This document shows, one piece after another, positions 7,909-21,811 of a DNA stretch of 64,000 bases (position 1 is its first letter; every line of letters begins with the position of its first letter). The stretch lies in assembly GCA_963739205.1 (NCBI GenBank), contig CAVTZJ010000004.1, forward strand, positions 322,369 through 386,368, written 5' to 3'. The notes under the pieces are model-generated. The model had not been told where the DNA came from. It searched no databases and saw nothing but the letters and a program-made list of their open reading frames with translations. A program made the translations under genes and the position numbers. The stretch is from an uncultured Pseudomonadota bacterium (GTDB lineage Bacteria; Pseudomonadota; Gammaproteobacteria; Burkholderiales; SG8-39).

Positions 7909-9399
7909 TTGACCGATCAAGCGACCAAGAACAACAAGGGATCCTGGCTGAAGGCAGCTCTGACGGCGGCCGCACTTATCGTCGTCGCATTACTCTGCTT
8001 CGTGCCGGAGAGCAGCAACGACCTGTGGCTGCACGCCGCAATCGGCCGGATCATATGGACGACGGGCGAGATTCCCCGCACCGCCCTGTTCCCCTTCACA
8101 GAGGCGAGCCAGTTTCCGTTCCACGCACACGAATGGCTGGTGTCGGTGCTGCTTTACTTTCTCGTGAATCAGCTCGGTATCAACGCGCTGGTTTTCGTCA
8201 AGGGCGTGCTCGGACTGGCCTTGTTCGGGCTGTGCTGTCGTCTGGCGTATCGCCTGACCGGCCGCTTCACCGAGGCGCTTCTGGTCGCGCTGACGGCGAT
8301 GGTCGTGGGGAACTTCCGGTTTTTCCTGCGCCCGGAGCTATTCGCGCTGTTCTTCACGCTCGCAGTCCTTTGGCTGATGATCGAATACCGGGCGCAGCGC
8401 CGATGGCCCTATCTGCTCACCTGCGCCCCCCTCGCAGCGCTGTGGGCAAATTGCCACGGCTCGTTTCCGCTCGCCCTCGTCGTCGGAACGATCTTCGCTT
8501 GCGGCGCCGCGATCGAGGCGTTGCGCGCGCCGCCCGGCCCGCGCTTGCGCGCATCGGTGCATGCGGCGCGACCCTATCTTTTGGCGACGGCGTTGATGGC
8601 GTTGGCCACGTTGCTCAATCCATATGGCCTGCAGTTGTACCGGTTTGTTTGGGAGCTGCAGAACGCGACGTTCATCCGCTCCTACGTCTACGAGTGGATG
8701 CCCATCTTCTCGCCTCTGTTCGTCGAATCGCGCGGCTTCTGGGCGTTCGCGGGCTATCTCGCGCTCGCGGCGCCACTGCTCTACGCGGGCCGCAAGGGCG
8801 TTACGCCGGCGGGCTGGCTGCTGCTGCTCGCCTTCGGTTATCTGGTAATCGGCGCGCTGCGGCACATTGCGTTCTTCGCCGTCGTCTCGATCTATCCGCT
8901 GTCCAGCGCGATCGCGGCCCTCGCCCCCCGCATAGATCGATCCGCCTACGCGCGCGGCGCGGTACTCGGCATCCTCGTCGCGAGCGCGGGCCTGCTGATC
9001 CGCTTCGGCAATCTGGACGGCGCCTACCCCTACTACGTGCAATCGAATTACTTTTCCAAGGCGCTGGTCGATTATCTGGGCAACGAGCAGGTGCGCGGAA
9101 ACGTGCTGAACTCCTACGAGCTCGGCGCAGAGCTCATCTATCGCTTCTACCCGCGCCTGAAACCAGTCATCGACTCGCGCGTGGATGTGTACGGCGAGAA
9201 GTATCTCCTCGATCTCCTGCGCCTGAACAGCGACGAGCCCGCACTGCGGCAGTTCGTGAATCGCTACCAGATCGCCTACGTCCTCCTCACATGGCGCGAC
9301 TTCAACGAAGGGATACGTCACATGCCGCACATCCGCGACGACGGCTGGCACATCGTGTTCGCCGACGACAAGGTGGTGCTGCTCGGAGGCAAGCGCTAG
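7909..9399 (+). CDS. Polytopic membrane protein (~496 aa), possible GT-C-like glycosyltransferase; family not assigned
   Basis: Downstream part of ORF 6610..9399; the upstream part overlaps soxB out of frame. No ATG is present, so the best start is TTG 7909. More than 10 hydrophobic segments, then a ~130-aa soluble C-terminus. Confidence 0.6.
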   Translation: MTDQATKNNKGSWLKAALTAAALIVVALLCFVPESSNDLWLHAAIGRIIWTTGEIPRTALFPFTEASQFPFHAHEWLVSVLLYFLVNQLGINALVFVKGVLGLALFGLCCRLAYRLTGRFTEALLVALTAMVVGNFRFFLRPELFALFFTLAVLWLMIEYRAQRRWPYLLTCAPLAALWANCHGSFPLALVVGTIFACGAAIEALRAPPGPRLRASVHAARPYLLATALMALATLLNPYGLQLYRFVWELQNATFIRSYVYEWMPIFSPLFVESRGFWAFAGYLALAAPLLYAGRKGVTPAGWLLLLAFGYLVIGALRHIAFFAVVSIYPLSSAIAALAPRIDRSAYARGAVLGILVASAGLLIRFGNLDGAYPYYVQSNYFSKALVDYLGNEQVRGNVLNSYELGAELIYRFYPRLKPVIDSRVDVYGEKYLLDLLRLNSDEPALRQFVNRYQIAYVLLTWRDFNEGIRHMPHIRDDGWHIVFADDKVVLLGGKR

Positions 9400-9538
9400 G
9401 CGTTGCGCTCGCTCCATTCCATCGACTTGAAGGAAATGCGCCCGGGCAGCGCGCACGGATCTCGGCTAAGCTCGCACGAATGGGGAGAGGGAATCCAGGG
9501 ATCCGCGCCGCGCCCGTATTGCTCGAAGGCGCTTCGCC

Positions 9539-20666: not shown

Positions 20667-21811
20667 CTCGGTTCTCCGAGGCGCAATACGCTGAGCAGGA
20701 AGGAAGCCAGCATGACTTCCATGCCGCCGATCATTAGAGACGTTGCAGGAATGGTGTCACGCATCACGACGCGCGGGTCGAGCACACCGAAGCCCGCTTC
20801 GCGCCAGTGCCAGAACGCAACGGCGCTCCAGACGAAGCCGCTCGCGGCGGTGGCCAAGCCGAACAGCAGCCCCCGCTCGAGGGTCGCCACGCGCAGCAGC
20901 GCCTCAAGCGCTTGCTGCCGCGGCAACAGGCCTGCATTCTGCGCCGAAACGCGCGCAAACAGGGCGAACAGACAAAGTTGCAGCCCGAGAATGGCGGCAG
21001 CCGAAGCGTACAGCATGCTGTGAATGTCCAGTCCCGCGCGGCCGATGTGCAGCGGAGAAAAGTACAGCGCGATGGTGAGCGCAATGCCGAGCGCGAGCAG
21101 CGCGAGCCCCGGGTAGAGGAACAGCCAGCGCGGGCTGAACAGCAGCAGAAAGCGCAGGTGACGCCAGCCGTCGCGCCAGCTGCGCAGGTGAGGCGCTCGC
21201 CCCCCGCGTCCGTCCGGGTGCAGCGTCGTCGGGACCTCTGCAATGCGCCAGCCGGCGAGCGACGCCTTGACGACCAGCTCGCTCGCGAACTCCATCCCGG
21301 GCGTCCTGAGATCGAGACTGCGCACCGCCTCGCGGTCGAAGCCGCGCAGGCCGCAATGGAAATCCCCGACCCTGGTGCGAAACAGAAGCCGACCGATGAA
21401 GCTCAAGACAGGGTTGCCCAGGTATCGGTGCAGCCAGGGCATCGCGCCCTTGCGTATGCCGCCCTTGAAGCGGTTGCCCATGACCAGGGGATGGCCCGCG
21501 CGCAGCATCTCGACGAATCCCTCCAGCCTCGAAAAATCGTAGCTGTCGTCGGCGTCCCCCATGATGACGTAACGTCCCCGCGCGACGGCGATGCCCGCCG
21601 CGAGCGCGGCGCCGTAGCCGCGCTGCGGCGCCTCGACCACCCTCGCGCCCGCCGCGCGCGCCAGCTCGCGGGAGCCGTCGTCCGAGCCGTTATCAACCAC
21701 GAGCACCTCGCCCGCGATGCCCGCGCGCTCAAGAAAGCCGCGTGCCTTGGCGACGCAGGTGCCGACGGTCGCAGCCTCGTTGAGGCAAGGCATCAGCACG
21801 GTCAGTTCCAT
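20663..21811 (-). CDS. Membrane-anchored GT2 glycosyltransferase; polyprenyl-phosphate sugar synthase type (GtrB/CsbB/DPM1-like)
   Basis: VLMPCLNEA, VVDNGSDDGS and GDADDSY motifs. Soluble GT2 domain followed by about four C-terminal TM helices. Strong RBS GGAGGAGGGGG. Confidence 0.85.
   Translation of the reverse strand: MELTVLMPCLNEAATVGTCVAKARGFLERAGIAGEVLVVDNGSDDGSRELARAAGARVVEAPQRGYGAALAAGIAVARGRYVIMGDADDSYDFSRLEGFVEMLRAGHPLVMGNRFKGGIRKGAMPWLHRYLGNPVLSFIGRLLFRTRVGDFHCGLRGFDREAVRSLDLRTPGMEFASELVVKASLAGWRIAEVPTTLHPDGRGGRAPHLRSWRDGWRHLRFLLLFSPRWLFLYPGLALLALGIALTIALYFSPLHIGRAGLDIHSMLYASAAAILGLQLCLFALFARVSAQNAGLLPRQQALEALLRVATLERGLLFGLATAASGFVWSAVAFWHWREAGFGVLDPRVVMRDTIPATSLMIGGMEVMLASFLLSVLRLGEPS

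Follow-up and report, generated by a model that had tools for sequence, protein, structure and literature searches.

A probable pilin-accessory glycosylation island with five candidate GT-C membrane glycosyltransferases in a soil Burkholderiales genome

The ten genes at positions 7909–21811 of a 64,000-nucleotide stretch of contig CAVTZJ010000004.1 (the window), from an uncultured member of a soil Burkholderiales lineage, probably form an enlarged pilin-accessory glycosylation island, lodged in the slot between type IV pilin genes and sox, moaC and M48 peptidase genes. They code for one family 2 glycosyltransferase (GT2) of the DPMS/ArnC/GtrB type, one GtrA protein, two methyltransferases, a family 4 glycosyltransferase (GT4) and five polytopic proteins that are candidate glycosyltransferases of the GT-C class (Table 1). 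A sequence-only reading of this DNA had described the same genes, order and coordinates, and all of the genes are real, with Pfam and NCBIfam confirming GT2, the TMEM260-like domain, GtrA, both methyltransferases and GT4; the pilin genes and terminator upstream went unreported there, pilin being named solely as a mass-spectrometry check. Three of the membrane proteins are referred to here by their lengths as M648, M496 and M569.

Two type IVa pilin genes lie upstream of the glycosylation genes on the same strand, and an intrinsic terminator is located between the second of these and the GT2 gene. The pilin 2 stop codon ends at 21909 and GT2 begins at 21811, giving a pilin-then-accessory-gene order. 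The succession of pilin, terminator and accessory glycosylation genes is the layout of the Pseudomonas pilin-accessory cassettes (PMC11841053), and it is because the two same-strand pilin genes and the terminator match this layout that we read the locus as such a cassette. Pilin 2 orthologues precede GT2 in about 32 related loci, and 38 of 39 have a hairpin followed by a U-run in the interval that separates the pilin from the first transferase; in a second clade the stem has another sequence and the same structure. The entire pilin–GT2 intergenic region is no more stable than its shuffles (z = 0.24), and significance is confined to the local hairpin and comes from its conservation. The alpha-beta loop of pilin 2 is rich in Ser, Thr and Pro (SGPTPAPTA).

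Gene neighbourhoods were taken from the contigs encoding homologues (numbered L001 onwards) plus two genome-wide scans, a comparison proposed in the sequence-only reading, and the pilin gene is the recurrent neighbour, with pilin-free exceptions. The closest relatives are L001 and L002, whose TMEM260-like proteins are 96% and 92% identical to that of the window, respectively. A pilin gene is present within 8 kb in about 32 of the approximately 37 TMEM260-like loci having enough upstream DNA. The conserved order is ATPase, HD-GYP, one or two pilins, terminator, GT2, optionally the YfhO-like gene (about 12 of about 35 related cassettes), a GT2–GtrA fusion, TMEM260-like and M648, followed by a variable tail of methyltransferases, GtrA, sulfotransferases, a DegT aminotransferase, a GFO/IDH oxidoreductase and the GT4–M569 pair. 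In Vitreoscilla metagenome-assembled genomes (MAGs), Scleromatobacter humisilvae BS-T2-15 and others, the pilin–moaC slot contains one or two pilins, GT2–GtrA, an M496-like gene and two PglL-type O-oligosaccharyltransferases. The Rhodoferax MAG L035 has the order pilin, PglL, three M496-like paralogues, YfhO-like, PglL and moaC (5817–16757), with no GT2 seen in that island; a comparable group of pilin-linked genes is present in the Rhodoferax isolate TH121 (L044). Among the sister genomes, PglL is found in the pilin-adjacent slot in L011, L029, L035 and L044, and PglL-type enzymes are established pilin and protein O-glycosylases with genes reported beside their targets (PMC3643930). M496 homologues elsewhere lie directly after the GT2–GtrA fusion, beside pilins and PglL.

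The association extends outside the Burkholderiales, where pilins adjoin distant TMEM260-like genes in L134, L137, L149 and L159; the pilin-adjacent TMEM260-like loci of distant gammaproteobacteria include the GT2–GtrA fusion in at least two cases, and in L169, a low-GC gammaproteobacterial MAG, pilS, pilR, GT2–GtrA, TMEM260-like and pilA are arranged in this order (3708–17201). Amid these otherwise reshuffled transferases, the pilin gene is the one neighbour that stays constant. This pilin-linked context supports, by genomic association, the earlier guess that the acceptors are proteins; it favours one main acceptor class, the adjacent pilins, over the several different acceptors that had been envisaged.

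The GT2 matches are those of the family expected of a polyprenyl-phosphate sugar synthase, and include DPMS (5mlz; 8e-9), ArnC (4e-7) and GtrB (1.4e-4) in the PDB, with archaeal DPMS among the closest. A GT2_TM_C domain is found in the GT2 orthologues, and the NCBIfam matches (AglJ, Dol-P-hexose and PpgS models) are all under cut-off. A membrane-anchored GT2 and a GtrA, which together mark the Gtr three-component systems, are both present in the window, but there is not one GT-C per donor module, as five GT-C candidates accompany one GT2 and one GtrA. The family matches of GT2 and GtrA, together with the GT-C assignments that follow, support the periplasmic glycosylation logic of GT2, GtrA and GT-C set out in the sequence-only reading.

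The GT-C nature of the membrane proteins, also proposed there, is strongly supported for the TMEM260-like protein, M496 and M569, and more weakly for M648 and the YfhO-like protein. Against human TMEM260, solved by cryo-EM (9rql), the TMEM260-like protein gives E-values of 1.2e-22 (single sequence) and 1.7e-44 (profile), in an alignment that spans residues 19–448, the entire transmembrane (TM) module. Its LEDDG is aligned with GGDSG of TMEM260, the motif holding the proposed catalytic Asp52 (PMC10214176), and this similarity predicts a GT-C enzyme. The TMEM260 profile match ends at about residue 448, with no detectable TMEM260 similarity in the C-terminal 240 residues, and Pfam TPR models have no match in residues 440–690 at E ≤ 0.1; the tetratricopeptide repeat (TPR) tail ascribed to this DUF2723 protein is not confirmed.

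Structure prediction and Foldseek searches, which the sequence-only reading had advised, were run for M496 and M569, and both models carry the GT-C fold. The AlphaFold2 model of M496, from a 57-homologue alignment, has a pLDDT of 90.5 and a pTM of 0.89; its top Foldseek matches are STT3, AglB, PglB and DPY19 (E 7e-8, TM-score about 0.6), and ranks 1–37 are all GT-C enzymes, counting three chains of the AglB C-terminal globular domain. For M569 (pLDDT 82, pTM 0.86) the best match is ArnT (5f15; E 1e-5, TM-score 0.50), and ranks 1–36 are exclusively GT-C. Both are thus GT-C enzymes as judged from their models. M569 also has an NCBIfam match to the LA_3751/3752 family (29 bits). The GDEH motif pointed out earlier in M569 is real, with G119, D120 and E121 invariant, but it is placed after the third helix in the model and is not literally in the first loop.

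M648 scores 25.5 bits against the GT87 model, for which the cut-off is 25, and its PMT_2 and ArnT matches are weak. Among 42 diverse relatives, PMT_2 is matched in 11 (best 2.7e-9), GT87 in five and PIG-M in one, all of these being GT-C families, and D27 and D31, after TM1, are invariant; the family has 3112 representatives. A C-terminal soluble domain (residues ~490–648; window 14224–14700) includes four cysteines, C507, C542, C571 and C637, that are invariant over the 42 relatives at 25–58% identity, and its sequence fits a disulfide-bonded periplasmic domain. The YfhO-like protein scores 27.4 bits against PF09586 (cut-off 28.5), with the best stretch mainly C-terminal, and 33 of 38 homologues match this family at E ≤ 0.01 (best E 2.4e-10).

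In each of the five proteins, acidic residues are conserved either shortly after TM1 or within the first long periplasmic loop; the sequence-only reading had suggested looking for an acidic motif in the first loop. PDB sequence searches gave no meaningful matches for the YfhO-like protein (single sequence and profile) or for M648, M496 and M569 (profiles), and profile–profile comparisons between the five families with hhalign gave probabilities below 2%, from alignments too shallow to inform. The five candidates belong to five unrelated families. Two of these are large and have no Pfam model, with at least 481 confirmed genomic relatives for M496 and 577 protein matches for M569.

Essentially all relatives outside the lineage of the window, L001 and L002 have a 363-aa GT2–GtrA fusion encoded between the YfhO-like (or GT2) and TMEM260-like genes, and many also carry extra GtrA genes (often two to three GtrA domains) and nucleotide-sugar enzymes. 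In the window there is a 150-nt gap at this position, directly after the YfhO-like gene, and it encodes a match to residues 188–227 of the L009 GT2–GtrA protein (45% identity; E 4e-4 in a small search space) with a score reached by 0 of 200 shuffles; the L002 gap retains residues 210–227. From this residual similarity we interpret the gap as the fossil of a deleted GT2–GtrA gene, making the single-synthase state a derived one. Because relatives have a second synthase and the gap preserves its fossil, the single synthase would reflect a recent loss rather than a design principle, which runs counter to the earlier proposal that one donor feeds several acceptors. No L001 or L002 contig is among the best 80 of at least 524 family members in a search for a second GT2–GtrA elsewhere in these closest relatives. 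The TMEM260-like enzyme may now be supplied either by the remaining GT2 or by a synthase elsewhere in the genome.

Among the window, L001 and L002, the three genomes sharing the deletion, the ratio of nonsynonymous to synonymous divergence (dN/dS) is 0.09–0.25 for all island genes, and 0.13–0.15 for the TMEM260-like gene. The island genes are under purifying selection and still functional, and with these values we reject decay of the island after the deletion. Pilin 2 evolves faster (dN/dS 0.35–0.48). Synonymous divergence (dS) from L001 across 9539–27381 is very uneven, at 0.82 for GT4, 0.35 for M569, 0.12–0.30 for most island genes and 0.10 for the ATPase, which suggests that the island is a recombination mosaic.

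In the pathway that we propose, GT2 would, by homology, attach a monosaccharide to polyprenyl phosphate on the cytoplasmic side of the membrane, where the two S-adenosylmethionine (SAM) methyltransferases and GT4 may modify or extend the lipid-linked intermediates, and GtrA, also by homology, would flip the lipid-linked sugar into the periplasm. The GT-Cs would then add sugars singly to pilin Ser/Thr residues and to sugars already attached, the acceptor site probably being the Ser/Thr/Pro-rich alpha-beta loop. Initiation on the protein is most plausibly the task of the TMEM260-like enzyme, because of the five it shows the most regular link to pilins and it has a protein-specific O-mannosyltransferase as a homologue; the remaining four would lengthen or branch the glycan, or act at other sites. 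Expression is probably by read-through of the post-pilin terminator, as in the Pseudomonas pilin-accessory cassettes. What the acceptor and donor sugar are, and how the five enzymes share the work, we infer.

Pilin glycosylation protects bacteria from pilus-specific phages and alters adhesion, and the variation in gene content from genome to genome fits a diversifying pressure, such as that from pilus-specific phages. To our knowledge, the known routes of pilin glycosylation use one enzyme, either TfpO/PglL, which transfers en bloc, or TfpW. A bolder proposal is that of a periplasmic assembly line free of oligosaccharyltransferase (OST), in which the five unrelated GT-C families build a complex and possibly methylated heteroglycan directly on the pilin, sugar after sugar, from polyprenyl-phosphate monosaccharides, with the TMEM260/DUF2723 homologue as a pilin-specific initiator and with the variation producing phage-driven glycoforms; we put this forward tentatively, as a possibility that we are inclined to doubt. 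Literature searches found neither a described function for a bacterial DUF2723 protein nor a pilin cassette that combines a DPMS-type GT2 with several GT-Cs. If the assembly line is real, it would provide a first function for bacterial TMEM260 relatives, and M496 and M569 would be two new GT-C families. A widespread soil-bacterial cassette with up to five GT-Cs behind a pilin would likewise extend pilin glycosylation to stepwise periplasmic building, and would offer a testable substrate for bacterial TMEM260/DUF2723 proteins. Related islands are present in the cultured S. humisilvae BS-T2-15 and Rhodoferax sp. TH121, such that parts of the model are directly testable, and new GT-Cs that use simple lipid-linked donors and a defined protein as acceptor may be useful for glycoengineering.

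Several observations weigh against a pilin island. The acceptor is assigned entirely from genomic association, and the terminator is just as compatible with transcription of the glycosylation genes apart from the pilins. GT2–GtrA is paired with a TMEM260-like gene without a nearby pilin in L123–L126 and L146, and with an M496-like gene without a pilin in L028, L030, L034, L046, L080 and L082; the Polaromonas M496-like loci L031, L032, L036 and L037 have neither a pilin nor GT2–GtrA within 10 kb, and the YfhO-like homologues of L006 and L007 adjoin nucleotide-sugar genes, with pilins missing from the surrounding 10 kb. The proline motif of TfpW and Emb proteins (YX6PFX7P, periplasmic loop 4) is absent from all five proteins, M648 is the less firmly placed as a GT-C, from its sequence alone, and so is the YfhO-like protein, a candidate through family-level Pfam matches. 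Loss of the fusion also leaves the donor of the TMEM260-like enzyme unexplained in this genome. The pilin-free modules and the L006 and L007 loci fit a general envelope glycosylation island that acts on many periplasmic or outer-membrane proteins, lipopolysaccharide (LPS) core, O-antigen or exopolysaccharide, the proximity to pilins reflecting a recombination hot spot. The uneven dS, indicating frequent recombination, favours the hot spot, the PglL enzymes of sister islands are often general O-oligosaccharyltransferases (PMC8423747, PMC3643930), and classical three-component systems modify O-antigen (PMC11127046). We nevertheless think such an island unlikely, as the pilin and terminator are constant across varied island contents and several lineages, gammaproteobacteria included, no Wzx, Wzy, Wzz, WaaL or ABC exporter genes are found in the island of the window, and PglL genes are reported adjacent to their target proteins (PMC3643930).

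It is less probable still that the single GT2 is a hub whose polyprenyl-phosphate sugar, possibly methylated, feeds five GT-Cs that each have their own acceptor class. The locus does have one TM-anchored GT2 and one GtrA, its five GT-Cs are from five unrelated families, and the purifying selection on the TMEM260-like and M648 genes after the loss of GT2–GtrA fits a shared donor. Against this, the single-synthase state is derived, with two synthases in essentially all relatives and the fossil still visible, a compensating synthase may be encoded elsewhere in the genome (64 kb were examined), and the genomic context offers one acceptor candidate and not several. That the island is partly defunct, with some GT-Cs carried as decaying passengers since the GT2–GtrA deletion, would account for the deletion scar and for the presence or absence of M496 among close relatives; with all open reading frames (ORFs) intact and dN/dS held low against the two relatives that share the deletion, we regard this as very improbable. 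We therefore retain the pilin-accessory island as the probable identity of the locus.

By analogy, the pilin-accessory island would work like a Gtr- or TfpW-type three-component system, in a pilin-accessory layout and with unrelated GT-C families. The sequence-only reading knew of no described system of this composition, which is strictly true, although TfpW is a clear functional precedent (bioRxiv 10.1101/2020.04.19.049825). The P. aeruginosa group IV cassette consists of pilA-tfpW(-tfpX), D-Araf genes and a GtrA-like protein (bioRxiv 10.1101/2020.04.19.049825; PMC11841053), and the features in common would be a GT-C with an acidic loop 1, a monosaccharide donor on polyprenyl phosphate that a GtrA-like protein flips, and a periplasmic glycan on pilin Ser/Thr. 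The window differs in having five GT-Cs of other families in place of one, a donor that would be made via a DPMS-type GT2 and not by the phosphoribosyl pyrophosphate (PRPP)/DprE route, additional methyltransferases and GT4, and a pilin acceptor that we infer. We also considered an orthologue of TfpW and, comparing by motif, rejected it, as the proline motif is missing and no TPR C-terminus was detected.

Of the components of Gtr-type systems (GtrA/GtrB/Gtr*; also CsbB–GtcA–YfhO and ArnC/ArnT), the window contains all three, namely GT2 synthase, GtrA flippase and GT-C transferase; it is unlike these systems in having five GT-Cs at one locus, in the position of the locus beside pilin genes, and in lacking an O-antigen, teichoic acid or lipid A context. 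Three-component systems with several GT-Cs have been noted, and left unexplained, in Xanthomonas and Bacillus (PMC11127046). Lipid A modification of the ArnC/ArnT type was rejected, with scores of 18.4 bits for the ArnT model (cut-off 567) and 20.8 for ArnC (cut-off 529), and a locus devoid of Arn biosynthesis genes. Teichoic acid would not be expected as the acceptor in a host that is, by its closest relatives, a Burkholderiales-type betaproteobacterium. We also rejected a Wzy- or ABC-dependent polysaccharide cluster: Pfam and NCBIfam scans of the ten locus genes detected no Wzx, Wzy, Wzz, initiating phosphoglycosyltransferase, nucleotide-sugar enzyme or ABC exporter, in agreement with the absences noted from the sequence, and WaaL is likewise absent from the island in these scans.

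Human TMEM260 is a protein O-mannosyltransferase (PMC10214176) and is similar to the TMEM260-like protein throughout the TM GT-C module, including the Asp of the catalytic loop. The window protein is distinguished by its bacterial origin and pilin context, by a C-terminal region with neither TPR nor TMEM260 similarity, and by a donor that is probably an undecaprenyl-phosphate sugar. The streptococcal GtrB/PgtC2 and Pgf (PgfS/PgfM1/PgfM2) systems similarly use a GT2 undecaprenyl-phosphate-sugar synthase and one or two YfhO-family GT-Cs that act on Ser/Thr-rich protein regions, and the target adhesins of Pgf are encoded within the cluster. These YfhO-family enzymes, such as PgtC2 and PgfM1, O-glycosylate proteins (PMC12041528), and the earlier view that a YfhO homologue has no obvious acceptor in a bacterium without teichoic acids does not stand. 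The window host differs in being Gram-negative, and its YfhO-like protein is very divergent (27 bits) and optional, occurring in about one-third of relatives.

PglL/TfpO (PilO) enzymes occupy the same pilin-adjacent slot in sister genomes, but a PglL/TfpO system was rejected for the window itself, where no Wzy_C or PglL_A protein is encoded in the island; transfer there would be sugar by sugar from polyprenyl phosphate, unlike the en bloc transfer of an oligosaccharide from polyprenyl diphosphate by PglL. In actinobacterial O-mannosylation a Pmt (GT39) enzyme initiates and a PimE-like GT87 enzyme elongates, with polyprenyl-phosphate mannose as donor. The proposed order of an initiator and then extender GT-Cs on a shared lipid-linked monosaccharide is similar, and M648 has weak GT87 and PMT_2 matches; the analogy is a mechanistic one, between unrelated organisms and with marginal sequence similarity.

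Table 1. Genes and other features of the glycosylation island and its boundaries, with positions in the window
Feature	Position	Strand	Basis
M496, predicted STT3/AglB/PglB/DPY19-like GT-C, 496 aa, TTG start	7909–9399	plus	AlphaFold2 and Foldseek; no Pfam match
GT4 (GT-B), cytoplasmic glycosyltransferase	9539–10729	plus	Glyco_trans_1_4, Glycos_transf_1, Glyco_transf_4
M569, predicted ArnT-like GT-C, 569 aa, invariant GDE motif	10726–12435	plus	AlphaFold2 and Foldseek; no Pfam match
MT2, SAM methyltransferase, 232 aa, ATG start at 13125	12427–13125	minus	Methyltransf_11, _25
GtrA-family putative flippase, 131 aa	13122–13517	minus	PF04138, 65.7 bits (cut-off 26.1)
MT1, SAM methyltransferase, 231 aa, hydrophobic C-terminal stretch	13524–14219	minus	Methyltransf_23, _11, _25; hydropathy
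M648, PMT_2/GT87-like polytopic protein, 648 aa	14224–16170	minus	GT87, 25.5 bits
TMEM260/DUF2723-like predicted GT-C, 690 aa, EDDG motif in loop 1	16170–18242	minus	PF11028, 93 bits
150-nt gap, putative scar of deleted GT2–GtrA fusion gene	18243–18392	minus	Residual fusion-protein match
YfhO-like polytopic protein, 757 aa, GT-C candidate	18393–20666	minus	PF09586, 27.4 bits
GT2, putative polyprenyl-phosphate sugar synthase, 382 aa, C-terminal TM helices	20663–21811	minus	PF00535, 88 bits
Intrinsic terminator between pilin 2 and GT2	21852–21881	minus	AAGGUACCC-UUCG-GGGUACCUU then U9; 9-bp GC-rich stem
Type IVa pilin gene 2, 161 aa, directly upstream of glycosylation genes	21909–22394	minus	PF00114 9e-11, N_methyl 1.5e-10
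Type IVa pilin gene 1, 156 aa	22623–23093	minus	PF00114 5e-14, N_methyl motif, leader GFTLIELMIVV
GAF-HD-GYP protein and GAF-MshEN type IV pilus ATPase, conserved pilus-side boundary	23262–27381	minus	Synteny
soxB, housekeeping-side boundary	6161–7864	plus	soxYZAX, moaC, M48 peptidase further left

The window has a G+C content of 65–70%, and coding frames were chosen from the G+C content of third codon positions (GC3) and ORF lists. The minus-strand genes are tightly packed, with successive junctions from GT2 to MT2 of -4, 150, -1, +4, +6 and -4 nt, the last being an overlap of the MT2 start with the GtrA stop; the junctions first described for this run (overlaps of 1–4 nt and gaps of 4–6 nt, with the 150-nt exception) are reproduced. 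GT4 and M569 are joined by a 4-nt overlap as a translationally coupled pair, which is kept in L001, L002, L009, L010 and L013. The orthologues of MT1 are likewise 231 aa long. ARAGORN calls a tRNA-Ser(CGA) at 21597–21671 (minus) that we rejected as an integration site, as it sits within conserved GT2 coding sequence and is most likely a false positive. A sigma-70 promoter scan of the island returned 0 sites and is uninformative.

The contents of the tail differ in detail between related islands. The slot held by M496 in the window has a DegT/WecE-like aminotransferase and an LPG_synthase_TM-like protein in L001 (18772–21999) and L002 (12917–15001), L001 also having a sulfotransferase-like protein, and the L008 tail includes aryl-sulfotransferase and sulfotransferase genes; sulfated or amino sugars may be present in some island variants. 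In L013 a 789-aa protein with no Pfam family and a faint methyltransferase signal (16715–19084, minus) is encoded between M569 and M648, where the window carries MT1, GtrA and MT2. The YfhO-like genes of L006 (1–9928) and L007 (4010–9934), with 58–63% identity, are beside a conserved set coding for a cupin, a sugar C-methyltransferase (Methyltransf_13/14), an NDP-sugar epimerase/dehydratase, a GFO/IDH oxidoreductase, a small GT2 and a membrane protein of about 530 aa, which may be a dedicated branched-sugar donor pathway for that YfhO-like clade. Past pilA, the gammaproteobacterial L169 codes for a 635-aa polytopic protein (no Pfam match; VLDDFEN near the N-terminus), which could be another pilin-linked GT-C, followed by GT2, GT4 and MBOAT genes.

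Both island boundaries recur in relatives. On the housekeeping side, a complete soxYZAXB thiosulfate-oxidation set is found at 3791–7864 with moaC, an M48-TPR peptidase gene and chrB, and the moaC/M48 boundary also ends the island in L011, L035 and L013. On the pilus side, the HD-GYP and ATPase genes are syntenic in L008–L012, L035, L044 and from L091 onward. The region 23262–32509 adjoining the pilins codes for the GAF-HD-GYP protein, the GAF-MshEN-T2SSE ATPase (807 aa), a cyclic nucleotide (cNMP)-binding rhodanese protein, a metallo-beta-lactamase resembling class II phosphodiesterases (PDE), a CHASE2 cyclase and an FHA protein. This signalling set is wholly or partly present beside the pilin in the Burkholderiales relatives L008–L012, with the ATPase and PDE in L035 and L044, and a set of cyclic-nucleotide and cyclic di-GMP (c-di-GMP) genes beside the pilins suggests a nucleotide-regulated type IV pilus.

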